IMG/VR virus record: IMGVR_UViG_3300009031_000221
Coordinates: 256,001 to 320,000 of that record
DNA length: 64,000 nt
Source of the DNA: a virus
Lineage: Duplodnaviria > Caudoviricetes
Direction: 5' to 3' (one strand)
Under the pieces are notes generated by a model. The model saw only the letters and a list, made by a program, of their open reading frames with translations. It was not told where the DNA came from and ran no database searches. The translations under genes and the position numbers were made by a program. This document shows positions 2,677-17,563 of this stretch, one piece after another; the stretch's first letter is position 1; each line of letters begins with the position of its first letter.

Positions 2677-2692
2677 AACGTAGGCTTAATGC

Positions 2693-3178: not shown

Positions 3179-3237
3179 GATTGTAACCTAGTGCTATAGG
3201 TTAGCACACTCTAGCACTAGGCATAAACAATCTATTG

Positions 3238-3311
3238 GGCTCCCCGAGTAGGATTCGAACCTACGACTATCGCATTAACAGTGCGAAACTCTACCGCTGA
3301 GTTATCGGGGA
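3238..3311 (-). tRNA. tRNA-Asn(GTT) copy C
   Basis: Cloverleaf, loop CT-GTT-AA, G73. Confidence 0.95.
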
Positions 3312-3317
3312 ATCTTA

Positions 3318-3394
3318 TGGGGTGAACGATGGGATTTGAACCCACGTAGACTTGCTTCACAGGCAAGCGCCTAAACCACTCGGCCACGTTCACC
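3318..3394 (-). tRNA. tRNA-His(GTG)
   Basis: Encoded G-1 opposite C73, loop CT-GTG-AA, CCA. Confidence 0.95.
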
Positions 3395-3858: not shown

Positions 3859-4401
3859 TCAAGCGCTAATCGACGCTTCCGGCAAATAAAATCCCTTCGA
3901 TCGAATTTCGGTCAGAACTGAGTTGGGGACCATCCCCTCTACCTCATGAATCCTGCCACTTCGGATGGAGTCCCGTACCAAGGTGCTTCGCTCTGGCCCC
4001 TGATCGGGAACCACTAGCAACTCTACCATCTTGGTAATGTCATCCCATCGGCGCCATTTGCTGTGGCACTCCAGGTTGTCAGGCCCAATGATCATTACGA
4101 ACTGGGCGTGGGTGTAATTACGGACAAGGAATTCTACGAAGTCCACCGTATAGGTGATATCGAGCGCCTTCTCCATACTGTTCACCCTGACGGGCGAATG
4201 CATTCCGAATACCTGTTCGATTGCGAGTGTTGTCATTCGCAATCGATCTTCAAACGGAAGCATGTCCTTACCGAATGAGTGCTTCCACGCAGGATGCACC
4301 CACAGAGAATCGAGGTTCCCTACAGCCATGGCATGAGTCATGACCTTCAGGTGCCCAATGTGTGGGGGGTTGAACGCCCCTCCATACAATCCGATCCTCA
4401 T
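3859..4401 (-). CDS. nadD: Nicotinate-mononucleotide adenylyltransferase
   Basis: GLYGGAFNPPHIGH (HxGH), R..M, IIGPDNL..W..W, STLVR. Confidence 0.88.
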   Translation of the reverse strand: MRIGLYGGAFNPPHIGHLKVMTHAMAVGNLDSLWVHPAWKHSFGKDMLPFEDRLRMTTLAIEQVFGMHSPVRVNSMEKALDITYTVDFVEFLVRNYTHAQFVMIIGPDNLECHSKWRRWDDITKMVELLVVPDQGPERSTLVRDSIRSGRIHEVEGMVPNSVLTEIRSKGFYLPEASISA

Positions 4402-4442
4402 TACATCGTCCTTGTGACCCCTCGCTCGGGGGCCACATTGGT

Positions 4443-4470
4443 ATCTACGCACTTCAGTCAGGAAGTAAGT
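4443..4470 (-). promoter_or_regulatory. Phage promoter motif upstream of nadD
   Basis: ACTTAC-TTCCTGACTGAAGTG-CGTAGAT. Confidence 0.8.
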
Positions 4471-5160
4471 CTACACCTCGAAATAAACCCCGACCTCAGT
4501 CAGACGGGCATATGCGTCACGGTCAAAGCTGTACATCTTCGCACCCTTACGTCCCGTAGCACTTGTCTCCCGAAGCACCCCGTAGTTCAGGATCTTGCGG
4601 CGAAAGTTCCGCCGATCGATGGGGCGTGCCAAGACAATCTCATAGAGGCGCTGCAATTCCAGCAACGTGAACTCCTTGGGCAGGAACTCGATGCCGATCG
4701 GATGCCACCGAATCTTGGCGCGGAGCCGCTTGATCCCCGTGGCGATGATCGCGGAATGGTCAAAAGCAAGGGGGGGAAGTTTATCTACCGACCACCACAC
4801 GGCTTCTTTCGCGTCGTCCGCACCTTTCACCGCAGCAGTCTTGATCAATGCCATGTATGCCATCGAGATGACACGACCGCGAGGGTCACGGTCGGGGTCA
4901 TCGAACAGTGCCAGTTGTTCCATATAGGAGGCAACGAGCCCTGTTTCCTCCCCAAGTTCCCGATGAACTGCGGCAAGGGAAGTCTCTTTCTTTCCGATAT
5001 CAACGAAGCCGCCGGGCAAAGCCCAGTGCCCGTAGAAGGGTTCCCCTTCCCGGCCACGGAGGATCAAGAGGATCTTCAGGGCGTGTTCGGCAAAGTCTAC
5101 GCCGAAGACAACGGCATCTACCGTGTGAGATGCTTGTTCATGTTTGTAAGTGAATGGCAT
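4471..5160 (-). CDS. nrtR: NrtR-family Nudix + winged-HTH regulator (ADP-ribose sensor, possibly active pyrophosphatase)
   Basis: TVDAVVF, WALPGGF, RELGEETGL, RDPRGRVIS, LAFDH, FTLLELQRLYE, DRRNFRRK. Confidence 0.92.
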   Translation of the reverse strand: MPFTYKHEQASHTVDAVVFGVDFAEHALKILLILRGREGEPFYGHWALPGGFVDIGKKETSLAAVHRELGEETGLVASYMEQLALFDDPDRDPRGRVISMAYMALIKTAAVKGADDAKEAVWWSVDKLPPLAFDHSAIIATGIKRLRAKIRWHPIGIEFLPKEFTLLELQRLYEIVLARPIDRRNFRRKILNYGVLRETSATGRKGAKMYSFDRDAYARLTEVGVYFEV

Positions 5161-5169
5161 TGGGTATCC

Positions 5170-5742
5170 TTACAGGAGGTTGAGGGCTTTGAAGATTTCC
5201 ATGTACACGTGATACTCATGATCCGTGAACATGACGAAGGTGATCTCATCCATGTCCCATTCATCCGCAAGGCAAGCGCTTGCCGCCGCGAATGCCCCCG
5301 TCGTGATCGGGCATCCGTAGATGCCGCAGGAAATCGCGGGGAATGCAATGGTGTAGATGTCGTGTTGCTTGGCGGTCTTGAGGCAGTTGAGGTAGGTATT
5401 GACCAGGGCGACTTCAGGCATGATGTCATCGGGGAGAATCTCACCCGGGCGGCTTTTGCCTTGGCGCTCGAAAACGGGGCCAACCGTATGCAGGATGCGA
5501 TGCACATTGAGGTCATGCCCGCCGGTAACCTTCACGTCGCTGATTTCGCAACGAACTCCATTGGTGACGGGGAACTTCTCGCACTCTTCGCGGAGACCTG
5601 GGCCTGCAGCACGATGAATGGCACCATCCACGCCACCCCCGCCTAGCAGGCTCGGATTGGCGGCGTTGACCACGGCATCGCCAGTGAACTTGGTAATGTC
5701 CCCTTGGATGATTCGAATGTTTAGGCCCGGGTTCCGTTTCAT
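5170..5742 (-). CDS. Macrodomain protein (YmdB-like ADP-ribose hydrolase)
   Basis: GDITKF.GDAVVNAANPSLLGGGGVDGAIHRAAG, HTVGP, AFPAISCGIYG. Confidence 0.95.
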   Translation of the reverse strand: MKRNPGLNIRIIQGDITKFTGDAVVNAANPSLLGGGGVDGAIHRAAGPGLREECEKFPVTNGVRCEISDVKVTGGHDLNVHRILHTVGPVFERQGKSRPGEILPDDIMPEVALVNTYLNCLKTAKQHDIYTIAFPAISCGIYGCPITTGAFAAASACLADEWDMDEITFVMFTDHEYHVYMEIFKALNLL

Positions 5743-5776
5743 GGTTGCTCCTGGGAGGCAGTGCCCCCAACGATAT

Positions 5777-5804
5777 GTCTACGCCGGTAGATCATAAAGT
5801 AAGC
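5777..5804 (-). promoter_or_regulatory. Phage promoter motif upstream of macro-nrtR
   Basis: GCTTAC-TTTATGATCTACCGG-CGTAGAC. Confidence 0.75.
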
Positions 5805-6393
5805 CTTCCCCGTAGGCTTTTGCCGGATGATGTTGAACGGCAATGCCAAGACTAGGCTGAATCGGGGTATCCTTGATTGGGCCTTCTTGCATGCCGTGCC
5901 GCCGATGCTGGAAGCAGTCGCTAGTAAGGCTGCCATGCGCCATGATGCCATAGGCACGGACACGCCCATGCCATCTACCGTTGACATTGACGCAGTGCCC
6001 TACGTCCCCTGACTCTCGTTTGAACCAACCACAGTCATTGCATGAACCATCGATTTCCTGCATCCATATGATGTGTTCCTTGTAGAGCGGGCGGCAACCC
6101 TTATGGATGAGGAACCACGTAGGCCACCAATATCCTGCAAGGATGTCCGCTTCGGACCTATCGGCAACGGGTTCACTGCACAGGTAGCATTGCGTGCCTG
6201 ACCAGACTGCCCAATTACGTTGACCTTGGATCCAAGCCAGGACATGGGGCTTCTTGCCGTCCTTCACCTCGAGTTCCCGGGCGACCTCAGAATCTTCAAC
6301 CCCACGACGTGCCATCTGGCGTTCGGTTTCAGGATCCGTGCCGTCAAAGACAAGGTTGAAGAATCTATCCCGGTCATTCTTGGTGTCTATCAT
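5779..6393 (-). CDS. Hypothetical protein with CxxC motifs
   Basis: 204-aa ORF in operon orientation. Confidence 0.65.
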   Translation of the reverse strand: MIDTKNDRDRFFNLVFDGTDPETERQMARRGVEDSEVARELEVKDGKKPHVLAWIQGQRNWAVWSGTQCYLCSEPVADRSEADILAGYWWPTWFLIHKGCRPLYKEHIIWMQEIDGSCNDCGWFKRESGDVGHCVNVNGRWHGRVRAYGIMAHGSLTSDCFQHRRHGMQEGPIKDTPIQPSLGIAVQHHPAKAYGEGLLYDLPA

Positions 6394-6401
6394 GGATTGG
6401 G

Positions 6402-6782
6402 TTACTCCTTGACAGGAACTGCCTTGATGGAACCATCCGTGTTTCGTGCAATAGCGACGTACACGACTTCCGCCGCAGTCACGGACACGGGAACGACCTC
6501 CCCATCCCGGCTGGATTCAACTTCCACCTTGACATGGATGGACGTAGTTCCAATCTTGATCAAGCTTGTCCAGAAGGTCACAACTTCCCCGACCTTGACG
6601 GGACTCTTGAACACGACCTCCTTGACTGCCATCGTGGCAACGTCATGCTTGGTGTGCAAGCGTGCCTCAACGGCTCCCGCCAAGTCAATCTCCGCCAGGA
6701 TTGCACCGCCGAAGATTTCCCCACGATGGTTCGTATCACGGGGAAGGAGGATACGCCTAATTGAAATGTTACGATTTTCCAT
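6402..6782 (-). CDS. Hotdog-fold acyl-CoA thioesterase (YciA-like)
   Basis: LPRDTNHRGEIFGGAILAEIDLAG, FKSPVKVGE, IGTTSI.V.VEV, YVAI. Confidence 0.9.
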   Translation of the reverse strand: MENRNISIRRILLPRDTNHRGEIFGGAILAEIDLAGAVEARLHTKHDVATMAVKEVVFKSPVKVGEVVTFWTSLIKIGTTSIHVKVEVESSRDGEVVPVSVTAAEVVYVAIARNTDGSIKAVPVKE

Positions 6783-6972
6783 TGTTTCCTACCTTGGTTA
6801 CAGGTTTGCGTTCCGTGAGAACTCGATCCAGACACTGGCTGAAACGTCCCCAGGCGGGCTTATCATACTCGGGTGACTCATGGCAATGCCCCCATAGTAG
6901 ATGAAGCAGATGTCGGACTTCCGCATCCAATTCCACATCTTTCAATTCATTGACACTCTTGGGATCCGCCAC
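6769..6972 (-). CDS. Hypothetical protein
   Basis: Short ORF coupled to neighbours. Confidence 0.55.
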   Translation of the reverse strand: MADPKSVNELKDVELDAEVRHLLHLLWGHCHESPEYDKPAWGRFSQCLDRVLTERKPVTKVGNNGKS

Positions 6973-6980
6973 AATTCCTC

Positions 6981-8726
6981 CTACTTCATCTTCAGTTTGA
7001 GCACCTTGTTGCCCTGGTATGCAACAAGGGATCCGGCATGCTTTGCCAGGATCATATCACTGGACAGGGCTTTGTCTTCCACCGTCTTGACGGACGGTGA
7101 CCCCTTACGTACGGAGAACATTTCGAGTTTGTCATCCTCGTTGAGGCAAATGCACACCCCGTTATCCAGTGTGACGAAGTTCAAGTCCATGAGGCTGCTA
7201 GGGACAACCCGCACGTCATAGGTGTCATCGGAATCGAACCGGAACACTTGACGATCGTACTTGCCTGCCTTTTCCGTAAGCACCATCAGGACGCCTTTGT
7301 CAAACTTGGCGTATACGATACGGAATCCGTCAAGTTCATTGACGCGAACCTGATGGGCGGATCCCGAATTCACGAACATGGAAACGTAAGTCGCCCCAAG
7401 CATGGATTGAATGGCCACGCCAGAGTACATATGCGTAGCGTGAGGCATGACATTTGCCACGGCCTTGGTAGATGCAATCACCTGTGCCCCAGCATCCGTC
7501 AGGATAACCTCATGGATCTGTTCATTCGTGCGGACGTAGATCCGACCGTCATAGGACATGGCATCTTTCACGTCCAAATCAAACGGGATTACCGCACGAT
7601 CGCTCAAGTTGTACAACATGAGCTTGGTTCCCTGTATCCCGCCAACCACCGCCCGATTGGCCTTATTGGTATGCCCACACACGGACACATGGCTAAATGG
7701 AACCGGGACAAGGCCATTGCCCAGATACACCTGGGTCGTTGTCGTCATGACGGGATTGCCCCCAGGAATCGTGCTGCCATACAACCCCGTAACAGGGAAC
7801 GGCAAGTCCCACAATTCCGAGATGTCGATGAGCGCTCCCATAATCGCTTTGACCGTCGGGACGAACATGATAACGCCCGTCATTCCCGCAGTGTGTGGGG
7901 GGATGCACCGCTTGCCCTGGACAAACATCGCTTCGTACCATTGCAGGTATTCACGGGGGATAGCGGTCAAGGGATAGGCGGAAGTTGGAACCCCAACTTC
8001 CGGATGCATGACTGAGATGTTCCCCTTCATGCGGCGCCGGGTGACGGCAAACGCATCATCATCCGGGTCTGTAGGAAGCTTGCCCCGGAATTCCGCTTTT
8101 GATCCGTGGTACTTGCCACGGTATGGATGGATGCCCATGAACATCTGGAAGGACAGGATGCCAAAGGAATACCAGTCCGACAGGGTCGTCCATTGGTGTC
8201 CCTGAACGGACCAATCCCGAATGGATTCCATGATTGCTTGTGTGGGGTAGCCCTTTGTCTGGTAGCTATCCACGTCGATGAAGAACACGTCATCGAACTT
8301 CTTGGGAACCATGAAGTTCATTTCGTTCAGGTCAACGATCAATGTGCCAGTTTGGTGAATGCCGTTGATGCTTTCCTGCATCTTGGCAACCAACTCAAGC
8401 ATCATGTCCTGGGTGATACCTTCCCGGTCACGGAAGGCACGCGGGAACAACTGGCATAGAGGATAACCCCCATCGATGAAACGCATCGTGTAGCCCACGA
8501 CAGCGCCCTTGGCGTCTACCAGCATGTCCTGTGGACGAATGACCCGGGGATCTTTGATGGCAGCAAGCTCATGGAACTTGCCAAGAGGGATCATCTTGGA
8601 AGGGTCGTGGTAGATCTTGTATGCCGTATGGCCCTTGACATAAACGGAACCTTCTCCCCCTTGGGCGAGGTAATCCTTTTGTGTCAAGTCAACGGTAATG
8701 CCTGACCCTTTGATGAATACCTTCAT
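6981..8726 (-). CDS. Ser/Thr kinase-like protein (YegI/TerY-P type) with C-terminal beta-rich region
   Basis: LAQGGEGSVY, AYKIY, H....IVDLNEMNF, FIDVDSYQ, SDWYSFGIL.FQ...GIHPY.G. Confidence 0.85.
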   Translation of the reverse strand: MKVFIKGSGITVDLTQKDYLAQGGEGSVYVKGHTAYKIYHDPSKMIPLGKFHELAAIKDPRVIRPQDMLVDAKGAVVGYTMRFIDGGYPLCQLFPRAFRDREGITQDMMLELVAKMQESINGIHQTGTLIVDLNEMNFMVPKKFDDVFFIDVDSYQTKGYPTQAIMESIRDWSVQGHQWTTLSDWYSFGILSFQMFMGIHPYRGKYHGSKAEFRGKLPTDPDDDAFAVTRRRMKGNISVMHPEVGVPTSAYPLTAIPREYLQWYEAMFVQGKRCIPPHTAGMTGVIMFVPTVKAIMGALIDISELWDLPFPVTGLYGSTIPGGNPVMTTTTQVYLGNGLVPVPFSHVSVCGHTNKANRAVVGGIQGTKLMLYNLSDRAVIPFDLDVKDAMSYDGRIYVRTNEQIHEVILTDAGAQVIASTKAVANVMPHATHMYSGVAIQSMLGATYVSMFVNSGSAHQVRVNELDGFRIVYAKFDKGVLMVLTEKAGKYDRQVFRFDSDDTYDVRVVPSSLMDLNFVTLDNGVCICLNEDDKLEMFSVRKGSPSVKTVEDKALSSDMILAKHAGSLVAYQGNKVLKLKMK

Positions 8727-8729
8727 GAT

Positions 8730-9011
8730 CTACTCCTCCAAATCGCCATTAGGGTCTTGAAGAGGGACTACCTCATCAAGGGCTCCCGCAAATGGGAGGG
8801 TGAGTTGCTTCGTTGGGATGTAATAGGTTGATCCCTCGCCGTAGTAGATATCCCAATCCTGATTGTTCCATCGAATATGAGGAGGAATGGGATCCTCGAA
8901 ATCTGCCCACTTGAAGATTCCTTGGCTGGAATCGACGAAAGGGATGTTATGCACATGCCAAGACATGACCAGTCCTTTCGCCCCGAAGACGCAAGTAAGC
9001 ATTGCGCTCAT
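8730..9011 (-). CDS. Hypothetical protein
   Basis: Short ORF in operon; start uncertain. Confidence 0.45.
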   Translation of the reverse strand: MSAMLTCVFGAKGLVMSWHVHNIPFVDSSQGIFKWADFEDPIPPHIRWNNQDWDIYYGEGSTYYIPTKQLTLPFAGALDEVVPLQDPNGDLEE

Positions 9012-9372
9012 CCTCGATCAATCCCGTATTCCAACCCTCGATACCCATGTTCCGATCGATGGTATCCTGTGCCGCCTTGGGCAGGGACTCATAGTTCAGA
9101 GGGCGGCGCAGGGCCAGTTCGAAACTCAGGTGGTACTTGGGCGGCTGTGCGAGCGGCAACGCATGCGTGATGGTGTCGTTGACGTTCATGCAAACCCCTT
9201 GGCCCATCGTCCCATTCTCGTTGACTTCCTGGGCAGACTCCGCACCGGTCTTGATCAGGGTAATCCAGGCAGGGTGATCATAGTTCGAGAAGACATCTCC
9301 CCAACCCTGAAACCAAGTGCCGATTGGAAGGTCTTTGAAATTCATGGCGTGACCCCTTGCTTGGATTTCCAT
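8947..9372 (-). CDS. Hypothetical protein
   Basis: ORF in operon; start probably 9345. Confidence 0.6.
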   Translation of the reverse strand: MEIQARGHAMNFKDLPIGTWFQGWGDVFSNYDHPAWITLIKTGAESAQEVNENGTMGQGVCMNVNDTITHALPLAQPPKYHLSFELALRRPLNYESLPKAAQDTIDRNMGIEGWNTGLIEDERNAYLRLRGERTGHVLACA

Positions 9373-9644
9373 TCATCTTTGGTAGGCAGTTGCGCCTTCA
9401 CATCATCCGTGAGTTCCCCGACAGATGTGATACGGTTGTAGCATGAAAATTCCGGCATTGGGTTTTCCGCTTCACATTCCGGGCATGTGAAGCATACCTC
9501 TCGCTTTTGCCATTTCCAGAAGAGGAACCCTCGCGGGGCCTGCACGACGTAGATGTCTTCAACAACCACTTCCAACAGGGAAGTGCAATGATGGCATAGC
9601 CATCGTTCTCGCCAAACCGTGTTTTTCCCGCCGATTACTCTCAT
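9342..9644 (-). CDS. Zn-ribbon hypothetical protein
   Basis: CHHC...CPEC; overlapping start and stop with neighbours. Confidence 0.6.
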   Translation of the reverse strand: MRVIGGKNTVWRERWLCHHCTSLLEVVVEDIYVVQAPRGFLFWKWQKREVCFTCPECEAENPMPEFSCYNRITSVGELTDDVKAQLPTKDEWKSKQGVTP

Positions 9645-10429
9645 GGGGTTTCCTCCGTTTCAATAAGGATTGCCCCGACTGAGAAATCATCGTAATGATC
9701 CCAGCCTTGGTTTTTGCAGTAGGAACCCAGGAACCGTTTGGCACGGCGTACCATGAATTCCCCCGCGTTTGATTGCACGGCAATCACTTGGGCCACGATG
9801 TCCTGAACTGAAACAGGGTCATGACCCTTGCGGAAGCTAACCATCCCATCCGTAGAAAGGACGGCAAGGTCGTATTCCGACTTATACAGGGACAAGGACA
9901 AACCATCCCGCGGCCTGCCTCGCTCTGTTGCGCCATTGGCATAGGTGATGATGGGTTGGTAATTGTCCAACTGCATGAAGGAGGCTTCTCGATCCAAGTC
10001 AATCATGTAGTTCGGGTAGAAAGGCGCACCGTTGGGGTACTCAACCTGAACGATTTCAACTTCCCCCGTCCGCCGGCGGCAAGCCAGCACGCCATCCCCA
10101 TACATATGAACTTGGATAGTATTTCCGTCAAAATGCTCATAGGCTACCAGGAGCGTTGCATCCAAGCAGTAGGAGGGCATGAGCATTGCCCCCGCCCAGG
10201 TTCGGGCTTGAGCAATGATGGATTCGATGTGGAAGGGGATGCCTTGGATGATGAAGTATTCCGCAGCCCGTACGAGGAAACGTGCCCCGATGTCCGTATC
10301 CTTGGAGGACGAACAACCATCGGACACAATGGCATAGGCACGCCCATCCTTGGTCTTGCCGGTACGGACGTAGTCCTGGCAAACCGTATGGGAAGAACCA
10401 ATTGCGAAGTATCCGTCAGCGTGCGTCAT
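9641..10429 (-). CDS. PP2C-like protein phosphatase (YegK type)
   Basis: G.SH.VCQDY, IVSDGCSSS, DATLL, GDG, LSTDG, DDFS. Confidence 0.88.
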   Translation of the reverse strand: MTHADGYFAIGSSHTVCQDYVRTGKTKDGRAYAIVSDGCSSSKDTDIGARFLVRAAEYFIIQGIPFHIESIIAQARTWAGAMLMPSYCLDATLLVAYEHFDGNTIQVHMYGDGVLACRRRTGEVEIVQVEYPNGAPFYPNYMIDLDREASFMQLDNYQPIITYANGATERGRPRDGLSLSLYKSEYDLAVLSTDGMVSFRKGHDPVSVQDIVAQVIAVQSNAGEFMVRRAKRFLGSYCKNQGWDHYDDFSVGAILIETEETP

Positions 10430-10604
10430 GATTATCCCCCTGCTTCTTTGCCTTCTCTTCATCGTAACGTTTCCGCAAATCCCTTGCATGTTGGCAATAT
10501 GGGCGTGCCCCGAAGGAATCGGTTTCCGGTTTCACATTGAAGTGCTGGCAAAGTTCCAGGTATTCTTCGGTATCATCTTCTACTACGGCTTGCCCACATG
10601 ACAT
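10416..10604 (-). CDS. Hypothetical protein
   Basis: Short ORF in operon. Confidence 0.5.
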   Translation of the reverse strand: MSCGQAVVEDDTEEYLELCQHFNVKPETDSFGARPYCQHARDLRKRYDEEKAKKQGDNHDAR

Positions 10605-10616
10605 GATGTTTTCCTA

Positions 10617-11339
10617 TTAGTCTGTGCCTTGGAACCCATGGCGAATCCGCCGCCGATCCCGGCTATTCCACTTAGCGATGTCGTTCAAAGCATCTTGGGC
10701 GCTTGCCATGTCCGCGAACAATGCTTCTTCGGCACCGTCATCGTTCCCGTCAATTCGGACTTTGACGGGCTGCTCAACCGATGGGTACAAGGACACGTCG
10801 ATCTTGTACAAGGACTGCTCATACTTGGATCGCTCAAAGGGCGTCATTTCAGACAACGCCTCCGTCAGCATTTCCTCGGTCAATTGTGACCCTTGGCACA
10901 CTGTATCGCCGATCTTGCACAGGAGGCGTGCCTTGTACTTCTCGCCGATCCGGTACGGCAAGTTGTAGAACGACGTTCGATTCCGTGCTACCGTATGCTG
11001 GATGTTTTGAGCGGTCGTGGGCAGGTCATACGGCACAAGGTCGTCCATCCCATCCCAGTCTTCGTAGTCGGTATGCCCTTCCGCGATGGTAATCTCCCGA
11101 CGACCTTTACGAACTGTGTACGTGCTGTAGTCGGTGATGCTGACGCGACCATAGTTGCCCGGCCAAGCCCCACCCGGAACCCATTCGCCTTCGGGGAACT
11201 GCAGCATCAGTATTGTGTCGCTATCCCTTTCGGTCTGACGATCGAGGTATTCCAGCAGCTTCCCATCCGTGAGTTCCTGGAGGAACTTCTCACGGTATGC
11301 CTGGGGGGTCATTAGGCGGTCATTTGGAAGGTTTCGCAT
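10617..11339 (-). CDS. Hypothetical protein
   Basis: 240-aa ORF in operon orientation. Confidence 0.7.
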   Translation of the reverse strand: MRNLPNDRLMTPQAYREKFLQELTDGKLLEYLDRQTERDSDTILMLQFPEGEWVPGGAWPGNYGRVSITDYSTYTVRKGRREITIAEGHTDYEDWDGMDDLVPYDLPTTAQNIQHTVARNRTSFYNLPYRIGEKYKARLLCKIGDTVCQGSQLTEEMLTEALSEMTPFERSKYEQSLYKIDVSLYPSVEQPVKVRIDGNDDGAEEALFADMASAQDALNDIAKWNSRDRRRIRHGFQGTD

Positions 11340-11340
11340 G

Positions 11341-11652
11341 CTAGGCCCCCTGAGTCACGCTGCCGACGATAGCGGGACGCCACTCAAGCAACTGCTCGCG
11401 GGTCAGCGAAACCGTCTTGCGATTCAGGCTGCCCACGCCAATGGTGACGATGAGCGGAGCCCGGTTGTTGTGGAGGTGCTTGTTGTCCGCACAAGCACGC
11501 TTGCGCTTCACGTCTCGTTCCTTGACGACGCCGCAGCGATGTCCGGTCTCCTTGGTCTGATAGCGGACGATATCGCCAGCCTTGATGTCCCGGAATTCCG
11601 TTTCGGACACGGGGAGCACTTTCTCAGTTGCGATGACGATACGGGCGTTCAT
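11341..11652 (-). CDS. Hypothetical protein
   Basis: Downstream of promoter motif at 11696. Confidence 0.6.
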   Translation of the reverse strand: MNARIVIATEKVLPVSETEFRDIKAGDIVRYQTKETGHRCGVVKERDVKRKRACADNKHLHNNRAPLIVTIGVGSLNRKTVSLTREQLLEWRPAIVGSVTQGA

Positions 11653-11695
11653 GGGATTCTCCAGGCAGGGATGTCGTTTGCCCCCTGCACACCCT

Positions 11696-11723
11696 ATCTA
11701 CGCTAGACTTTAGGAAAGTAAGT
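11696..11723 (-). promoter_or_regulatory. Phage promoter motif
   Basis: ACTTAC-TTTCCTAAAGTCTAG-CGTAGAT. Confidence 0.8.
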
Positions 11724-11724
11724 T

Positions 11725-12063
11725 CTAGGTCCAATGAATGACTGGGATGCCGTGAGTCCACTGTCCCACATTCGTATGATCCTTCTGGGTTGCTGTCCCG
11801 TCTACCACCCTATTGAACAATTCCTTCACCGGAGTGGGCGGGTCTACTACCACGTACTTGTTGGTGTTCGTAGCCGTTACCGTGGATACCGATGCAGTAG
11901 CTACCTGCTTGGTATAGACCACCCGGAGGCGTTGCAACTTCAGCTTTGGGCTAATTGCGAGTACGCGGTATAGAATCATTCCGTATTCAGCGGCAGTGTT
12001 GCCCTTGCCACCCGTAGCTACCCAGCTACCAGGATAGATCCCTTGTCCGATGAAGTCTTGCAT
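11725..12063 (-). CDS. Hypothetical protein
   Basis: GGAGA RBS, 112 aa. Confidence 0.65.
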   Translation of the reverse strand: MQDFIGQGIYPGSWVATGGKGNTAAEYGMILYRVLAISPKLKLQRLRVVYTKQVATASVSTVTATNTNKYVVVDPPTPVKELFNRVVDGTATQKDHTNVGQWTHGIPVIHWT

Positions 12064-12081
12064 GGGATCTCCTCAGTATCT

Positions 12082-12117
12082 CCCATGGGGAGGCTCATGG
12101 CTGAGCCTCCCCATGGG
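12082..12117. repeat. Perfect 16-bp inverted repeat (hairpin) downstream of the vWA gene
   Basis: CCCATGGGGAGGCTCA-TGGC-TGAGCCTCCCCATGGG; no U-tract. Confidence 0.85.
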
Positions 12118-12123
12118 GAAGTG

Positions 12124-12870
12124 CTAGAAGGTCAGGGACTGCGATCCGCCGCCAGTGCCCAGAGCCTTCGACTGGCTGCTCATGCTGAGCGAGATGAATC
12201 CGCCGACCTTGGCGAGGGTCTTCTCATCCGCGTCACCAATGGCAACGTACTGCTGGAATCCCGCCTCATCCTTGAAGGCCTGGAGGTAGGAGTTCAGGGA
12301 ACCCGTAGCGCCAACGCCGATGAGGACGGACATCAAGGACTCGAGGGCCTCCGAGTGCGTGGCCTCCGCGAATGCATCCTTGCACATCTTCGCCGTAGAC
12401 CGGGACATGTTGTCCTCGCCGTCCGTGATAACGAAGATGGCGGCATTCACGGTGTAATCGTGGGACGACAACTGCTTGCCGTACTCGATGCAGGAATGCA
12501 CCGCCTCGTAAACCGCATCGTACAGGCACGTGTACCCGCCGGGGACGCAGGAATCCACGTAGTCCAACTCGTTGCAGTTCGGCAACGGCTTGAACCCGTG
12601 ATACTCCTTGAGTTGCGTATCGAACGTCACAACGCGAAGCATCATGCTATCGGCACGCGGGTTGAGGCGGCACGCCTTCACGATCTCGGCGAGGGCGGAT
12701 TCCATCTGCTTGCGGTAGCCTGCAGTGGAACCGGAAACGTCCACAACCACAACGCCAAGGGTGTACATCTCCGCGCCAAGTGCTTTGATATCCGCAGCAG
12801 TGAACGCGAAGGTCGAACCCCCGATATTGTGTGTTGCCATTGCAACACTGTCATCAACAAACTTGGGCAT
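12124..12870 (-). CDS. vWA domain protein (TerY-like)
   Basis: MIDAS VDVSGST, GGYTCLYDAV, FVITDGEDN. Confidence 0.88.
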   Translation of the reverse strand: MPKFVDDSVAMATHNIGGSTFAFTAADIKALGAEMYTLGVVVVDVSGSTAGYRKQMESALAEIVKACRLNPRADSMMLRVVTFDTQLKEYHGFKPLPNCNELDYVDSCVPGGYTCLYDAVYEAVHSCIEYGKQLSSHDYTVNAAIFVITDGEDNMSRSTAKMCKDAFAEATHSEALESLMSVLIGVGATGSLNSYLQAFKDEAGFQQYVAIGDADEKTLAKVGGFISLSMSSQSKALGTGGGSQSLTF

Positions 12871-12941
12871 CTCTATTCTCCTTTCAATCATGTCCATAAG
12901 GCTTGGGGCAGAGCCTATCCCTACCCCAAGCCCTAGGAGAA

Positions 12942-13853
12942 CTAGGCCAGGAATTCAACCGTGGTGCTGGTCTTCATGCCCTTCTTGAGCATGTCCTGAA
13001 CGAACGCATCGCCGAGGAAATCGAACCCGCCCACGTTGGAAGTCGCATCCGTGAGGAGGACGAGCTTCTCAACGTACTTCGGGTTGCTGAAGCAGCTTGC
13101 GATGTCGCGGCCCGTGTTGGCAACGCAGTGCGAAAGCGCCTCGCCGCCCAAGGCGATGATGTCGGCCTCTTCCAGCGACGTGATCAGGTTGGTGTTGACC
13201 TGGGTCGAAGGGTCATTCGGATCAGGGACTTCCGCCTTGACTCCCGAAAAATGCTCCGTCCAGGGGTTGTTCCCCTTGACAACGTAGTTCACGCGGGCGA
13301 ACTGCTGGATCTCCCATTCGCACAGAGCCTTGGACAGTTCATCCACGATGCTCCAGCCCCAGGTACCGACAACGCAGTGGATCGGCCAAATGACGTGAGG
13401 GTAACGGCCCTTGAGCGCCAGCGCCTCCAGGTAGCCGAAGCTGCCCGTGCCCTTGTCCGAACCCGCCTTGCGAGCCGGGCCACCGCTATGCAGCATGGAC
13501 GGCAGGAAGGTCGTGTACTCCTCATCGGTGTAGACCGGGGCGCCCGTGCTGAAGTCGATCTTCACGATCCGCTTGCCGTCCGGGTGAATGCCCAAGGCGG
13601 TGAAGGGGGTCGGGAGGGCGCCATCACCCACGCGCTTCCACCAATTCGGGCGCTCGATGCCGATCGACTGGTGGGAGTCCAACGTGACGGTGATGTCATC
13701 GATGCGGGAGCCGAGGCGATTGATCATGGTGGCGAAGCGAGCGCAGTCCGCCGCAGCACCGGGAACAACCAAGGTTCCCTTGTTGCCATGACCGTCGTCA
13801 GCCACAACGAAATCCTTCTGAGGGTCAACGATAAAAACGTGCGTCTTCAACAT
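12942..13853 (-). CDS. pncA: Nicotinamidase-like cysteine hydrolase (isochorismatase family)
   Basis: IVDPQKDF, TLDSH, WPIHCV, VKG.N..TEHFS, GEALSHCV catalytic Cys. Confidence 0.8.
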   Translation of the reverse strand: MLKTHVFIVDPQKDFVVADDGHGNKGTLVVPGAAADCARFATMINRLGSRIDDITVTLDSHQSIGIERPNWWKRVGDGALPTPFTALGIHPDGKRIVKIDFSTGAPVYTDEEYTTFLPSMLHSGGPARKAGSDKGTGSFGYLEALALKGRYPHVIWPIHCVVGTWGWSIVDELSKALCEWEIQQFARVNYVVKGNNPWTEHFSGVKAEVPDPNDPSTQVNTNLITSLEEADIIALGGEALSHCVANTGRDIASCFSNPKYVEKLVLLTDATSNVGGFDFLGDAFVQDMLKKGMKTSTTVEFLA

Positions 13854-13904
13854 GGTATTTGTCCTTCTATCTATGTCCCCCGGAGGGGACTGTTGCTACC
13901 TGCT

Positions 13905-13932
13905 ATCTACGAGGATGTCCCGTAAAGTAAGC
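13905..13932 (-). promoter_or_regulatory. Phage promoter motif upstream of pncA-like gene
   Basis: GCTTAC-TTTACGGGACATCCT-CGTAGAT. Confidence 0.8.
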
Positions 13933-13937
13933 CTTGC

Positions 13938-15029
13938 CTAGATGCCGTAATCGGCGAAGTTGTCCGACAGGATGCCCTTCATAACCAGATCCGTACGGCA
14001 ACCCAACTGCGGGATGTTGGGATTGAGCTTGTGGCGGGTCTGCTTCTCGGCTTTGCGGGCACCCTTGAGCAGTGCCTCGAGTTGATCGTAGCCCAGCCCC
14101 GCATCCTTGAAAGCGTCACTGAAGACCGCACGACCCAACAAGTCCCGCATATCCTCCTGCGACAGGGTATCCCCGAACAGGACATCCTCGTTGGTCTTGC
14201 AATCCAGGATGATGTTCGAAACATTCTCATCCAGGAACCGGGCCACCCGCTCGATGGTGCCGATCTTGTAGACCTTGCCGGTGTCAGGATCGAGCTTGCC
14301 GTACGTGAACGCAGCGCCTGTCCAGTTCTTGATCTCCGACTCATCGTTGTGGGTGTCACCATTGCCCCACAGGTCCGCCGAAGGGATGGCACCGATGGTT
14401 TCCGCATAGGCAGCCTTGGCGCCCGTGTTGCCATTGTAGCCCTCAAGGGTTTCGCCCAGCTCGAAGCACAACTGGTAGACCTCGGCCTTCGAGAGCATCG
14501 CAATGGGGTTCGAATCCACTTCCCCATCGCCACCCTTCTGGTAGAAACGCAGGAAGCGATCCTCGCACTCGTTGCCCGTACCGTGACGAATGCCGCCACC
14601 CGTAATGCGGTTGTAGCCACGGCCAAGCGGGGCACGCAGGCACGAACGAACGCTACCCAGGATGGTCGGGTCGGCAGCGAGGCGGGCTTCAATCTCCGCC
14701 ATGTCGAATCCCGCCGCCTGCAAGGTGCGCTTGATCTCCGCAAGGATCGTGTTGTAGGACTCCGTGAAGTCGCCAACCGCCAACTTGCAACCCAAGGCAT
14801 TCGCAAGGCGAATCGCCCGGGCGGTCTGGACGGGATTGGAGTTGATGGCGAGGTGCGCCAACGTGACGTTCTCGGCACCCTGTGCAATCACGAGAAGTCC
14901 CGCCAAGGCAGCGGAATCGATGCCGCCGGACAAGTCCAACTCGGCACGCAAGATGCCCGCATCGGCATGCATCTTGCGAATGGCATGAACACGATTTTGC
15001 AATAGGGCTTTGGGATTCAAAACTGGCAT
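13938..15029 (-). CDS. nadE: NH3-dependent NAD+ synthetase
   Basis: LSGGIDSA PP-loop, N/S.R..LR, GTGNECE, FYQKGGDG, PIAMLSKAEVY, PSADLW; no glutaminase domain. Confidence 0.9.
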   Translation of the reverse strand: MPVLNPKALLQNRVHAIRKMHADAGILRAELDLSGGIDSAALAGLLVIAQGAENVTLAHLAINSNPVQTARAIRLANALGCKLAVGDFTESYNTILAEIKRTLQAAGFDMAEIEARLAADPTILGSVRSCLRAPLGRGYNRITGGGIRHGTGNECEDRFLRFYQKGGDGEVDSNPIAMLSKAEVYQLCFELGETLEGYNGNTGAKAAYAETIGAIPSADLWGNGDTHNDESEIKNWTGAAFTYGKLDPDTGKVYKIGTIERVARFLDENVSNIILDCKTNEDVLFGDTLSQEDMRDLLGRAVFSDAFKDAGLGYDQLEALLKGARKAEKQTRHKLNPNIPQLGCRTDLVMKGILSDNFADYGI

Positions 15030-15069
15030 GGGGCAATCTCCTTTTGTGTGGCGGTATTCGCCTTGTGTT

Positions 15070-15097
15070 AGCTACGCAGGCACTGGGAAAAGTAAGT
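15070..15097 (-). promoter_or_regulatory. Phage promoter motif upstream of nadE
   Basis: ACTTAC-TTTTCCCAGTGCCTG-CGTAGCT. Confidence 0.8.
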
Positions 15098-15990
15098 CAC
15101 ATAGGGTGTAATGTTTTCACCTGAATCAGGGCAGGAGCCAACTCCGCAGCTTTACGGGCATTCGGATGGCTATCGGTAACGATGATCTGGTCAATGCATG
15201 ACTTGCGGAATTTTTCAACCGCATTCCCTACGAAGACCCCGTGAGTTGCGGCGCACCTAACAGTCAAGGCACCGCGATCCTTGAAGGCCTGGGCTGCTTT
15301 GATCATCGATCCACCCGTAGCAATCATGTCATCAAAGATGACCACATTGCATCCATTTACGTTATCGCCAAGGACGTTCAGGATTTTGGTTTCCGAACCG
15401 GACAGGCGCTTCTTCTCGATGTGTGCAAATCCAACGCATGCAGCATCCGCCAACTTCTTGGCCTCATACACACCGCCATCGTCTACCGTGGCATATACGA
15501 GAGGGTGGACAGGCTGATCCATCCGGGTACTGCGAATCGCACGCTCGAGTAATGGACGGTAGATCAGGTTCTTCGTGACAACCGGGCCTTCAAAGTAGTG
15601 GAGGACGAGATCCTTGTGGAGTTCCACGAAGTACAACCGGACGCCAGGGAATACATTGCCCAGGCCCGACCATTGACGGGCTTGGAACTTCGCCAGTGCC
15701 GCAAATTCGCCGTCTACCCGTTCGGAACGGGCATGGCGGAAGTAGGTGTTGATCACAGAGAAACGATGTGGCCCTTGGCTGGCAATCTCATACGCCGCTG
15801 CCAAGAACAGTTCCGATGCTGCAGCCGAAGAACATTCGCCAATCAAGCAGATTTCGTCGTCAGGGGAGATCATCGGAATGGATACCGCATTCTCCCCATC
15901 CGGGAAGGTCTTGATGACAACCCGGTTGTCGTAGCCAATGTTAGCCCCATAAGGGATCGAATCCGGCATGTAGATATTACGCAGTGCCAT
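15097..15990 (-). CDS. prs: Ribose-phosphate pyrophosphokinase (PRPP synthetase) family
   Basis: FPDGE, YFRHARSER, VELH, D.GG, KKR, IFDDMIATGGS, ATHGVF. Confidence 0.88.
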   Translation of the reverse strand: MALRNIYMPDSIPYGANIGYDNRVVIKTFPDGENAVSIPMISPDDEICLIGECSSAAASELFLAAAYEIASQGPHRFSVINTYFRHARSERVDGEFAALAKFQARQWSGLGNVFPGVRLYFVELHKDLVLHYFEGPVVTKNLIYRPLLERAIRSTRMDQPVHPLVYATVDDGGVYEAKKLADAACVGFAHIEKKRLSGSETKILNVLGDNVNGCNVVIFDDMIATGGSMIKAAQAFKDRGALTVRCAATHGVFVGNAVEKFRKSCIDQIIVTDSHPNARKAAELAPALIQVKTLHPM

Positions 15991-16002
15991 GACGGTAGCT
16001 CC

Positions 16003-17457
16003 TTATCCCAGGTTGGCCTGGATTTGGTCCTCAATGGCCTGTGTCATCGGGGAGAGGGATGTAATGATGTTGCGGGGTTCATCGAAGTCGTAGCAACTGA
16101 TGGGGTGGTAATTCTCCACGGTCTCGCCTTCCTGAGCGATGAGGTGAATCAAGTCCCCGCCGAAGCCATAGATCTCCAGGATGACCGGTTTGCCGGTGAT
16201 GCTCTTCTTACCCTTCGATCCCGAGAACTTCTGCTTGGGATCCCCCGCCGACATCGCCAACTTGTACGCCGCCGAAGCCACGTCCCGGTTGTAAGGGGTC
16301 AAAGCCGGTTGCGACGTGAAGAATCCACCGTAGCCGTACAACCGCTTCTCCCGAGGCCAACCGTGGGAATCGCAGAAGGCTTCGTTCTTGGCGGTCTTTT
16401 CCGCATTGTAGCTATCCTCGAAGGGCAGCATGGGGTAGATACCCAGCTTGTCGCAGCCCTCTTTGATCAGCAAGAACTGTTGATCCTGATCCCCCGAATC
16501 GAATCGCATCGAACATGGACGATCCGGGTCTTCCGCCATGACTTCCAGGGCAGCGGGGATACCCTTGTTCATGGGGTCGGTTGTATCGAACAGGTAGGAT
16601 GGAGGCTCCGGCCGCATGTCACGGATAGCACGGTAGCCATGACGGTCATCCGCATTCTTGCCCCCCCACCGCATTTGGTGCTCATGCCCCGTCGTACCGA
16701 CCGGAATCATGTACAACTTCCATGCTCCGAAGACGTTGGAAGTCTTGCGAATGCCGAGGTTCTCGCACAACTGCAACACCATCAGGTGCTGCTGCATGCA
16801 GGTTGCCGCCCGAAGGCCAACCTCAAATGCCCGATGTGCGTCACCCTTCAGAGCAGCGATGACCGCCTGAATGTTGGTCTTCACACGGGCAAGGTATCCT
16901 TCCGTATCCATGGTGATATGGATCTCGATATCCCGACCCAGCATAGCGGCGACCGCATCGCGAGAGGCCAGAACGATATCCGCTTCATCTTGGCAAGTTA
17001 CCGTGAATTCGGTTTCCCCCTTCTTGATTGCCGTGGCAATCTGGATGGGGTACTGCAGCATGATCATCTTGTCTTCCAACCAGGACACCAAGAAGGATGC
17101 GCCACGGTTGGTCAGGACGGGTTCGCCCTTGCCAATCCATGCACCCTTGGGCGGGCACACGACATGAACAGGGCGCTGCAATGCCATATCCATTGCCGTG
17201 GTCATGGGGTAGCCATTCGCCGTCAGGAACCCCGCCTCTTTGGTGGATGGCAGGGACGGAAGCATGAACTGCACGATGGCATTCAGGTCGAAGGGATTGT
17301 AGAACGGCCCGCCCCTACGGAAGCAAAGGGCGAAGATTTCCTCCCGGAGCGGGAACCCTGCCTGTGCCATGGCAAGCTTGTAGGCATCCACCATCAAGGC
17401 AGACGCCTTCTCCTGGCCTAGGATTGCTTTGGCGATTCGATATTCGATGGACTCCAC
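16003..17457 (-). CDS. pncB: Nicotinate phosphoribosyltransferase (PncB type)
   Basis: DAYKLAMAQA, EVGLRAA, TSNV, GTTGH, LFDT, RFDSGD, AYKL; GTG start after AGGAGGT. Confidence 0.85.
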   Translation of the reverse strand: MESIEYRIAKAILGQEKASALMVDAYKLAMAQAGFPLREEIFALCFRRGGPFYNPFDLNAIVQFMLPSLPSTKEAGFLTANGYPMTTAMDMALQRPVHVVCPPKGAWIGKGEPVLTNRGASFLVSWLEDKMIMLQYPIQIATAIKKGETEFTVTCQDEADIVLASRDAVAAMLGRDIEIHITMDTEGYLARVKTNIQAVIAALKGDAHRAFEVGLRAATCMQQHLMVLQLCENLGIRKTSNVFGAWKLYMIPVGTTGHEHQMRWGGKNADDRHGYRAIRDMRPEPPSYLFDTTDPMNKGIPAALEVMAEDPDRPCSMRFDSGDQDQQFLLIKEGCDKLGIYPMLPFEDSYNAEKTAKNEAFCDSHGWPREKRLYGYGGFFTSQPALTPYNRDVASAAYKLAMSAGDPKQKFSGSKGKKSITGKPVILEIYGFGGDLIHLIAQEGETVENYHPISCYDFDEPRNIITSLSPMTQAIEDQIQANLG

Positions 17458-17474: not shown

Positions 17475-17514
17475 GTGTGTATACAGGACACACTGTATCG
17501 TGTCAAGCGGACAC
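17475..17514. promoter_or_regulatory. Tandem palindromes matching the NrtR operator core GT-N7-AC
   Basis: GTGTGT-ATACAGG-ACACAC (17475-17493) and GTGT-CAAGCGG-ACAC (17500-17514) between promoter and pncB RBS. Confidence 0.6.
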
Positions 17515-17535: not shown

Positions 17536-17563
17536 ATCTACGCAGACGGTGTGAAAAGTAAGT
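17536..17563 (-). promoter_or_regulatory. Phage promoter motif upstream of pncB-prs
   Basis: ACTTAC-TTTTCACACCGTCTG-CGTAGAT. Confidence 0.8.

Follow-up and report, generated by a model that had tools for sequence, protein, structure and literature searches.

A huge groundwater phage encodes a predicted deamidating NAD+ salvage gene set with an NrtR-type regulator and candidate operators

Genome context and layout of the NAD block

The window analysed here is a 64,000-nt stretch (bases 256001–320000) of a single virus record of 536,053 bp (IMGVR_UViG_3300009031_000221), a phage genome from groundwater metagenomes with a CheckV completeness of 100% that encodes 68 tRNA genes and one tmRNA. As an earlier sequence-only reading had described, pncB, prs, nadE, a pncA-like gene, macro, nrtR and nadD are co-oriented, all on the minus strand between positions 3859 and 17457. 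The block is not contiguous, with ~7.2 kb and 11 ORFs, none with an evident role in NAD metabolism, separating pncA from macro. These include, likewise on the minus strand, a TerY-like vWA-domain protein (12124–12897; weak VWA_2 match, under cut-off), a PP2C-type phosphatase (9641–10489; PF13672, 38.9 bits, cut-off 24), a 581-aa kinase-like protein (6981–8726; weak matches to Pkinase and the lanthionine-synthetase kinase domain), and a YciA-like hotdog thioesterase (6402–6782; PF03061, 43 bits; NF007970, 72 bits, under cut-off). The vWA gene directly follows pncA in all phage loci surveyed, and the PP2C and kinase-like genes are syntenic in eight and nine, respectively, of the 10 fetched phage loci. 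The thioesterase gene lies immediately before nrtR in locus L016 and occupies the equivalent position in L017 and L018, both of which end short of any visible nrtR.

A motif scan located the phage promoter CTTACTT-N12-GCGTAGA on the minus strand before pncB-prs (17537–17562, start 17562), nadE (15071–15096, start 15096), pncA (13906–13931, start 13931), macro-nrtR (5778–5803, start 5803), and nadD (4444–4469, start 4469). The five copies previously noted in front of the NAD genes are thus present, but a sixth occurs inside the block ahead of a 103-aa ORF (start 11722, minus strand) and the motif is not specific to NAD genes. It is a general promoter of this phage genome-wide, with the spacing of CTTACTT-N12-(G)CGTAG[AC] fixed in 115 of 117 genome occurrences.

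Enzymes of the pathway

The gene pncB (16003–17457, minus strand; longest ORF extending to 17493) has a called product of 484 aa, a divergent PncB-type nicotinate phosphoribosyltransferase (PRTase) for which profile searches returned no Pfam or PHROG match. Its score against TIGR01513 (56 bits, E 2.8e-15) is under the model cut-off, and the Nampt/Namat model NF006629, on which Namats score 469–594 bits, gave no match. The AF2 model (pLDDT 94.6) matched PncB structures over its full length (2im5, 3os4, 1vlp, 1yir, 4hl7, and 1ybe; VIA Z 27.5–30.3, 360–370 residues), whereas against Nampt, NadV, and Namat structures the barrel alone was matched (Z 13–16.6). The catalytic motifs VDAYKLAM, KTSN, GTTGHEH, and RFDSGD are invariant or nearly so among 30 homologues; all four PncB signatures named in the sequence-only reading (DxYxxxM, TSN, GTxxH, RxDSG) are therefore present, but RxDSG also occurs in Namat and does not discriminate. 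Judged by profile and modelled fold, the PRTase belongs with PncB, as had been proposed, and is neither a Nampt nor a Namat, an assignment of class from which the choice of substrates (nicotinate or nicotinamide, PRPP or ADPR-PP) cannot be read. Its homologues number 747, many on contigs of 0.2–0.5 Mb.

Adjoining pncB across a 12-nt gap, prs (15097–15990, minus strand) encodes a 297-aa ribose-phosphate pyrophosphokinase-like protein, short at both ends, that exceeds the TIGR01251 cut-off (135 bits, cut-off 113) and matches E. coli Prs (4s2u, E 3.7e-25). In the profile comparison of Prs with Adps suggested earlier as a check, HMM scores did not split Adps (106–123 bits) from the Prs-like protein (135 bits), but the tree and loops place it outside Adps. 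In the tree it falls within a huge-phage clade (100/99) sister to stand-alone cellular Prs, the genes of which are its closest cellular relatives, and five Adps make up a clade of their own (100/98). The Prs-type loops DDMIxTGG(S/T) and KKR are kept, and the Adps loop K-x-R-[ND]-x-x-T-G was sought in the protein and is absent. Whether ribose 5-phosphate or ADP-ribose is the substrate cannot be read from sequence.

The NH3-dependent NAD+ synthetase-like NadE (13938–15029, minus strand; 363 aa; PF02540, 49 bits, cut-off 21) has an SGGIDS PP-loop, PDB matches exclusively to NH3-dependent NAD synthetases, and Atlas neighbours that are NAD synthetase clusters, mainly viral. NadD (3859–4401, minus strand; PF01467, 48 bits), a nicotinate-mononucleotide adenylyltransferase-like protein, is 180 aa from the ATG at 4401, the likelier start because a GTG at 4452 overlaps the promoter; it possesses a GGAFNPPHIGH motif and matches B. 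subtilis NadD (1kam, E 1.2e-14) and the NadD equivalogs (up to 98 bits, under cut-offs). Both proteins match their families. The nicotinamidase-like cysteine hydrolase (12942–13853, minus strand; 303 aa with a ~100-aa insertion) has no Pfam match in the window copy, though many of its 1992 homologues, numerous on contigs of 0.2–0.5 Mb, match PF00857. Residues D10, D59, H61, K193, and C243 are invariant across 25 homologues, giving a predicted D/K/C triad and a D-x-H motif of the type that binds metal in nicotinamidases, and the best Foldseek matches of its AF2 model (pLDDT 79) are nicotinamidases (3v8e, 2wta, 1ilw, 3pl1). None of the pathway enzymes reached an NCBIfam equivalog cut-off, which counts against the pathway reading.

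In the co-occurrence survey that had been called for, pncB-nadE-pncA were adjacent in all 10 fetched phage loci (eight distinct), and NadD is also kept in the module. Prs occurs in three of nine distinct phage clusters, window included, and is missing from six of the eight distinct related clusters, so recycling of ADP-ribose carbon is not core to the module. In a Desulfatibacillum bacterium, members of the PRTase, PncA, and NrtR subfamilies found in the phage occur together in a plain pncB-pncA-nrtR locus that lacks the vWA/PP2C/kinase triad.

Regulator and candidate operators

The Nudix gene (4471–5160, minus strand), read earlier as the enzyme converting ADP-ribose to ribose 5-phosphate, is instead an NrtR-type regulator with a winged helix (PF21906, 69 bits, and PF00293, 56 bits, both over cut-off; NF050029, 150 bits, under cut-off), with PDB matches to AraR/NrtR (5bs6, 3gz5; E 1e-36 to 2e-29). 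Its REUXEEXGU core is intact (RELGEETGL), but the G-x5-E segment is longer by two residues, so ADP-ribose hydrolase activity is no more than possible. The earlier proposal of a complete deamidating Preiss-Handler pathway plus ADP-ribose recycling is supported in its first half, with PncA, PncB, NadD, NadE, and Prs all present, and not supported in its second. Beside nrtR lies a gene for a MacroD/YmdB-like Macro domain protein (5170–5742, minus strand; PF01661, 116 bits) that scores 159 bits, under cut-off, against the O-acetyl-ADP-ribose deacetylase model NF001664.

A palindrome scan identified two candidate NrtR operators in the pncB leader, GTGTC-CGCTT-GACAC (operator 1, 17500–17514) and, 23 bp from it, GTGT-N7-ACAC (operator 2, 17477–17491). 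The 536-kb genome contains just three GTGT-N7-ACAC sites, operator 1 among them, and the sequence of operator 1, GTGT[AC]C[GC]CTTGACAC, recurs at the corresponding position in L003, L004, and L011. Tandem candidates spaced 22–23 bp and ≤120 bp upstream of pncB occur in the window and in L003, L004, L011, and L016, four related phages with PRTases only 44–67% identical; a single GT-N7-AC palindrome lies upstream of the gene in the Desulfatibacillum bacterium. Operators upstream of pncB are absent in four of the eight distinct related phage loci (L012, L014, L017, L018), and when the window's sites were left out of the matrix they ranked only 14th and 153rd genome-wide; both points count against the regulon reading. 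So does the finding of candidates at pncB-prs exclusively, with plain promoters at nadE, pncA, and nadD. The leader RNA has an unremarkable fold (z +0.76) and no match in an Rfam search. Overall, the tandem palindromes point to ADP-ribose-inducible expression.

Proposed function and alternatives

We consider it probable that an NrtR regulon of bacterial type, serving NAD+ salvage by the deamidating (Preiss-Handler) route, was acquired by this huge phage. With the enzyme steps assigned from family membership, nicotinamide would be hydrolysed to nicotinate and NH3 by the PncA-like nicotinamidase, nicotinate joined to PRPP by the PncB-type enzyme to give NaMN, NaMN adenylated by NadD to NaAD, and NaAD amidated by the NH3-dependent NadE to NAD+; in the group's largest phages, PRPP supply would be supplemented by a streamlined Prs. 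The Macro protein probably converts ADP-ribose derivatives to free ADP-ribose. NrtR, expressed from a promoter of the phage itself, would occupy the tandem pair of GT-N7-AC operators within the transcribed pncB-prs leader and be released on binding ADP-ribose, thereby turning on the first committed step while NAD+ is undergoing cleavage; it may also split ADP-ribose into AMP and ribose 5-phosphate. Overall, NAD+ supply would be maintained while infection proceeds, both for NAD+-using functions of the phage itself and under host NADase defences, a counter-defence role that we infer. Two points count against the proposal: the route is costly, since ATP is consumed by Prs, NadD, NadE, and PncB-type enzymes alike, and hosts may already possess the same pathway.

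An ordinary auxiliary metabolic module, supplying NAD+ to phage consumers and a starved groundwater host without having been selected as counter-defence, and with NrtR as a homeostat as in bacteria, is somewhat unlikely, though it draws on several observations. The genome encodes NAD+ users of its own (two ORFs with PARP domains and the adenylation domain of an NAD+-dependent DNA ligase), the sample origin is groundwater, the module copies a bacterial housekeeping regulon, and numerous NAD+ consumers accompany NAD+ synthesis genes in jumbo phages (PMC11662467). The predicted ADP-ribose-responsive control and predicted co-transcription of macro with nrtR fit a response to NAD+ cleavage. Plain over-synthesis of NAD+ by NARP2 defeats NADase defences, so the metabolic and counter-defence readings overlap and are not mutually exclusive.

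A deamidated short cut resembling NARP1, with the Prs-like protein pyrophosphorylating ADP-ribose, the PRTase forming NaAD from nicotinate and ADPR-PP, and NadE finishing, is improbable. The prs-PRTase adjacency does resemble Adps-Namat, the HMM scores do not separate the families, and the Prs-like protein, like Adps, is truncated at the N-terminus and has no C-terminal regulatory helices. Against this, Adps is a distinct, well-supported clade, the loops are of the Prs type, the PRTase is related to Namat in the barrel only, NadD is retained, and the six distinct related clusters without Prs keep pncB-nadE-pncA. The presence of NadE supports passage through NaAD, because NadE is needed only on such a route; together, a PncB-type PRTase, a Prs-like protein outside Adps, and NadE with NadD argue for Preiss-Handler salvage and not NARP1. 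That the block makes or senses a nucleotide-like metabolite other than NAD+ through the vWA/PP2C/kinase triad, the thioesterase, and the divergent PRTase and amidase is hardly credible: the triad is embedded and syntenic across phages, and PncB and PncA diverge too far for Pfam to recognise them, but four independent enzymes form consecutive steps of one known pathway and the bacterial counterpart lacks the triad.

Comparison with known systems

The block had been put forward as a candidate third phage route to NAD+, a position overtaken by the publication of NARP3 (PnuC + NadR) in August 2026 (PMC13464706) and by a 2024 annotation-based report of full Preiss-Handler clusters (pncB-nadD-nadE) in jumbo phages, e.g., Kuafu_71 (Microbiome, PMC11662467). 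NARP2 (Nampt + Nmnat, phage KVP40) and NARP3 likewise start from a pyridine precursor and draw on PRPP or nicotinamide riboside to resynthesize NAD+, but are amidated two-gene routes with no reported regulator; searches of the 536-kb genome found neither Nampt nor PnuC. NARP1 (Adps + Namat) and NARP1-AP, which adds the Macro phosphatase Adpp (bioRxiv 10.64898/2026.01.28.702374) and provides a precedent for Macro proteins in phage NAD+ reconstitution, share a Prs-fold gene adjoining a type II PRTase, a nearby Macro gene, and NAD+ cleavage products as starting materials. Here, in contrast, the PRTase is PncB-type and not Nampt-like, Prs lies outside the Adps clade, and the predicted route runs via NaMN and NaAD, requiring NadD and NadE. 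The NAD-jumbo phages similarly cluster genes for every step from nicotinate to NAD+, but that report (PMC11662467) is based on annotation alone, and its accessible text describes no nicotinamidase, Prs, Macro, NrtR, or operators for the cluster. The pathway is therefore precedented in jumbo phages, and NrtR with its candidate operators is the part without a match in the phage literature searched, in which no description of an NrtR switch was found.

Neither the gene set nor the idea of ADP-ribose feeding ribose 5-phosphate and PRPP is new, both having been described for NrtR regulons of bacteria (Rodionov et al. 2008, PMC2330246), as were a GT-N7-AC core and release by ADP-ribose, with arrangements including nrtR-pncA-pncB-nadD-nadE in Clostridium acetobutylicum, nrtR-nadD<>pncA-pncB-nadE in Pseudomonas, and nrtR-prs-nadV in Shewanella. 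The phage shares their gene set, including a dedicated prs, the Nudix and winged-helix regulator, tandem GT-N7-AC sites, and, as proposed, the ADP-ribose derepression logic. Unlike them, the phage copy is interrupted by the vWA/PP2C/kinase triad, the thioesterase, and Macro, its PncB and PncA are divergent subfamilies unrecognised by Pfam, and it is viral, placed on phage-specific promoters.

Gene content and layout of the NAD block

The virus record is 536,053 bp long (52% G+C, 100% complete by CheckV) and encodes 68 tRNAs and a tmRNA in a cluster immediately upstream of the NAD block. This cluster occupies window positions 1–3393 and genome positions 208–259 kb, with its end adjoining nadD and a tmRNA tag of ANDNVEFTSFAAAA; a suppressor-like tRNA with a TTA anticodon occurs at genome 483473–483562. 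All seven co-oriented NAD genes named in the sequence-only reading were recovered on the minus strand, consisting of a phosphoribosyltransferase (PRTase, pncB; 16003–17457, 484 aa), a Prs-like protein (15097–15990, 297 aa), a NadE-like protein (13938–15029, 363 aa), a PncA-like protein with nicotinamidase motifs (12942–13853, 303 aa), a Macro protein (5170–5742), an NrtR protein with Nudix and NrtR winged-helix domains (4471–5160), and a NadD-like protein (3859–4401). The block is a genuine and coherent module that is widespread in phages, is predicted to perform deamidating NAD+ salvage, and is distinct from NARP1 (the Adps plus Namat pathway).

The ~7.2 kb separating pncA from macro encode a vWA protein, a PP2C phosphatase, and a kinase-like protein, in addition to a YciA-like thioesterase and small ORFs. 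The first three form a trio within the block (window 6981–12897; vWA, 12124–12897; PP2C, 9641–10489; kinase-like, 6981–8726), and most related phage loci preserve its order. The trio resembles the TerY-P triad (vWA, PP2C, and Ser/Thr kinase); two of the three domain matches are sub-threshold (VWA_2, 21 bits; Pkinase, 17 bits), with only PP2C_2 above its cut-off. The YciA-like acyl-CoA thioesterase (6402–6782, minus strand) has a counterpart directly before nrtR in the related phage locus L016 and in the same relative place in loci L017 and L018. Near the block, on the plus strand, are a GmrSD N-terminal (DUF262-type) protein (18930–19502) and a nucleoside 2-deoxyribosyltransferase-like protein (24398–25129).

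The bipartite motif CTTACTT-N12-GCGTAGA occurs in 117 copies genome-wide, 115 of which have identical spacing. Window copies are located at 964, 4469, 5803, 11722, 13931, 15096, 17562, 18567, 19504, 21133, 26182, 34128, 35217, 38132, 55576, 56109, and 59115. Six of the copies fall within the NAD block on its minus strand, and the five that had been reported in front of NAD genes were all found, directly before pncB, nadE, pncA, macro-nrtR, and nadD. It serves the phage as a general promoter and is no mark of the NAD genes. Across the whole genome its orientation tracks the gene strand, and a strict bipartite motif with strand-following orientation points to a sigma factor or RNA polymerase specific to the phage; neither sigma-70 promoters nor intrinsic terminators were enriched.

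The phosphoribosyltransferase is of the PncB type

The PRTase had no PHROG match and no Pfam match even at an E-value of 10, and it scored below the curated family cut-offs (Pfam PF04095 and the NCBIfam equivalogs), including a sub-threshold match to the NAPRTase model TIGR01513 (56 bits, cut-off 297), though a few of its homologues do match PF04095. A confident AlphaFold2 model (pLDDT 94.6), made with 30 homologues, aligned over its full length to six PncB structures (VIA-align; Z = 27.5–30.3, 360–370 residues, rmsd about 3 Å), compared to alignments confined to the barrel for Nampt, NadV, and solved Namat structures (Z = 13–16.6, about 190 residues). All four motifs put forward as PncB signatures (DxYxxxM, TSN, GTxxH with the phospho-His, and RxDSG) are present and conserved among homologues, but RxDSG is not distinctive, as it is common to Namat.

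Assignment as a Namat was rejected. A Namat is recognized as a Nampt-like protein, by a match to the Nampt-family model NF006629, that also carries the selectivity-clamp helix motif GSX(phi)X(phi)X(phi)TRD. Two genuine Namats, from phages SPbetaL1 and ULIM9, scored 469–594 bits against NF006629, and neither the PRTase nor any other protein in the genome matched it; by BLASTP the PRTase reached the two Namats only at E-values above 0.3, and the structural match to Namat 9w5w was to the barrel alone (Z = 16.2 over 189 residues). The full-length match to PncB structures, the barrel-only match to Nampt and Namat, the absence of an NF006629 match, and the motifs together place the PRTase in the PncB type (NAPRTase, with a type II PRTase fold), with nicotinate as the predicted substrate.

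Remaining enzymes of a proposed deamidating route

The PncA-like protein has the isochorismatase fold, the Asp-Lys-Cys triad (D10, K193, and C243), and metal-binding Asp and His residues (D59 and H61), all five positions being invariant among 25 homologues. The structural model, moderately confident at pLDDT 79, has nicotinamidases as its top structural matches; among ~2000 homologues, many match PF00857. The NadE-like protein possesses the PP-loop SGGIDS and scores 49 bits against PF02540 (cut-off 21), with a TIGR00552 score below the cut-off (50.6 bits, cut-off 63.65), and its matches in the PDB are exclusively NH3-dependent NAD synthetases. NadE is sensible only in a route via NaAD, and the NH3 freed by PncA may be the NH3 used by NadE. 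The NadD-like protein carries the motif GGAFNPPHIGH (H-x-G-H type), matches structure 1kam (E = 1.2e-14) and 11 NadD equivalogs (E ≤ 1e-9, all below their own cut-offs), and has bacterial NaMN adenylyltransferases as its best matches. A second NMN/NaMN adenylyltransferase was sought elsewhere in the genome and discarded, the other two CTP_transf_like matches being not NadD-like and the one scanned being CoaD-like. CoaD-like genes occur at genome 287482–287940 and 518752–519138.

The Prs-like protein falls outside the Adps clade

Separating Prs from Adps by profile, as had been suggested, did not work: against TIGR01251, Adps proteins score 106–123 bits and the window Prs-like protein 135 bits. 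As a marker of Adps, absence of the C-terminal Prs helices was likewise dropped. The Prs-like protein is trimmed at both ends, as are Adps, and its C-terminus (the alpha11-alpha12 module of canonical Prs) is short, but members of the cellular sister clade share this shortening, which makes the feature uninformative.

Five Adps, each adjoining a Nampt-like gene, formed one clade (100/98) apart from the window protein, which grouped with proteins of huge phages (100/99). The sister group of that clade consists of cellular Prs-like proteins (100/99), the genes for which stand alone with no NAD genes in their vicinity. The Prs-type DDMIxTGG(S/T) and KKR loops are kept, and the Adps loop K-x-R-[ND]-x-x-T-G is absent. 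The distribution is the most telling: apart from the window, prs occurs in just two phages, of about 520 kb, and it is absent from six of the eight distinct related clusters, all six of which retain pncB-nadE-pncA, so an obligate pair of the Adps-Namat kind is unlikely. On the separate Adps clade, the grouping with cellular Prs, and this distribution, membership of the Adps clade was rejected.

An NrtR regulator with conserved candidate operators

The gene to which ADP-ribose (ADPR) hydrolysis had been ascribed as a "Nudix" proved to be NrtR, with both the Nudix (PF00293) and winged-helix (PF21906) domains above cut-off and matches to structures 5bs6 and 3gz5 (E = 1e-36 to 2e-29). Compared to the canonical Nudix box (GX5EX7REUXEEXGU), the core EX7REUXEEXGU is intact (E-TSLAAVH-RELGEETGL), but two additional residues lengthen the stretch from G to E; the relatives in phage locus L016 and in Desulfatibacillum aliphaticivorans have the canonical spacing. 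In NrtR proteins, ADPR pyrophosphatase activity is tied to an intact signature (PMC2330246), so the phage NrtR may hydrolyse ADPR. A Nudix-M23 peptidase fusion (20138–21157, plus strand) lies 2.7 kb from pncB on the opposite strand, and L003, a relative of 520 kb, has a fusion of the same two domains beside the cluster, likewise on the opposite strand. It was set aside as an ADPR pyrophosphatase, being MutT-like in general with no specific ADPR-pyrophosphatase signal.

NrtR binds palindromic operators of 21 bp that are built around a GT-N7-AC core and are often in tandem (PMC2330246). Two GTGT-N7-ACAC palindromes, 23 bp apart (17477–17491 and 17500–17514), are located in the transcribed pncB leader, with the promoter on one side and the ribosome-binding site on the other, and account for two of the three such sites in the whole genome. 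The tandem pair recurs with a spacing of 22–23 bp in four related phages (L003, L004, L011, and L016), ≤120 bp upstream of PRTase genes whose products are only 44–67% identical to that of the window, and in L003, L004, and L011 the proximal site is almost the same. A single like palindrome occurs upstream of the homologous gene in D. aliphaticivorans, and four related phage loci had no candidate operators upstream of pncB. With a 21-bp weight matrix derived from the related sites alone, leaving the window sites out, the window operators rank only 14 and 153 genome-wide, so the operators are argued from where they lie, from their tandem spacing, and from their recurrence in other phages, and not from matrix score. 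The pncB leader had no Rfam match and a fold z-score of +0.76, giving no sign of a riboswitch or attenuator. A phage NrtR with conserved candidate operators predicts that expression would be inducible by ADP-ribose.

Distribution in phages and a bacterium

Homologues of the PRTase (n = 747) and the PncA-like protein (n = 1992) were recovered, many on contigs of 0.2–0.5 Mb, and with hundreds to thousands of metagenomic homologues the module is widespread among environmental huge phages. Pfam-based surveys would undercount it because two key enzymes, of the PncB and PncA types, are invisible to Pfam. Among the GenBank phage records available for searching, neither the block (DNA) nor the PRTase (protein) had a match. 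The window stretch itself is present in metagenome runs from groundwater, all belonging to one study, and in no RNA run. Ten phage loci were compared, of which eight are distinct (L013 repeats L012 and L015 repeats L014). As far as the loci reach, the gene order pncB-(prs)-nadE-pncA-vWA-...-PP2C-...-kinase-...-(macro)-thioesterase-nrtR-nadD is kept.

In D. aliphaticivorans (GCA_000429905.1, KE386982.1 129265–150689) the PRTase, PncA-like, and nrtR genes occur together, with identities to the window proteins of 45%, 45%, and 56%, respectively. The module is a whole bacterial NAD regulon, regulator and candidate operators included, that is common to cells and huge phages.

Purpose of the module and comparison with known systems

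One possible purpose for the module, an alternative to countering NADase defences, would be to supply NAD+ to enzymes of the phage itself, among whose genes are the adenylation domain of an NAD+-dependent DNA ligase and two ORFs with PARP domains (genome 425139–425843, minus strand; 447196–447510, plus strand; 454154–454390, plus strand). The NrtR and its conserved candidate operators raise the idea of an inducible counter-defence regulon, in which a virus with its own ADP-ribose sensor rebuilds NAD+ via deamidated intermediates, a reading we put forward tentatively and consider rather improbable as a whole. The two purposes are compatible. Under the counter-defence regulon, phage-made NrtR would keep the pncB-prs operon off until released by ADP-ribose, which is left behind when host Sir2, TIR, or SEFIR defences cleave NAD+. 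Such control would spare the phage the cost of constitutive over-synthesis that has been reported for NARP2 (Nampt plus Nmnat), and the embedded vWA/PP2C/kinase triad could add a second signalling layer. If true, a phage ADP-ribose-responsive repressor would be unusual, with a virus sensing a product of the host immune reaction and tuning its response. A literature search returned no paper in which a deamidated route was tested as counter-defence, and a search for NrtR with "jumbo phage" returned none describing a phage NrtR.

Reconstitution of NAD+ by phages is an active front of the arms race, with NARP1, NARP1-AP (NARP1 plus a Macro phosphatase; bioRxiv 10.64898/2026.01.28.702374), NARP2, and NARP3 (PnuC plus NadR, published in 2026; PMC13464706) described so far. 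The claim of a third route made in the sequence-only reading therefore holds in part: the predicted route is deamidating and distinct from NARP1, but NARP3 has been reported, as have complete Preiss-Handler clusters in jumbo phages, which a 2024 survey identifies by annotation (PMC11662467). The 2008 NrtR paper describes bacterial operons with exactly this gene set, dedicated prs included, and proposes that Nudix hydrolysis of ADPR feeds PRPP (PMC2330246). A 2022 survey of viral NAD+-ADPr systems gives NadV, NadM, and NadR as the only phage NAD+ synthesis enzymes and treats NrtR for cellular systems only. Overall, the pathway itself is a new variant of one already described, and what stands out against the known systems is the phage-borne NrtR with its conserved candidate operators.
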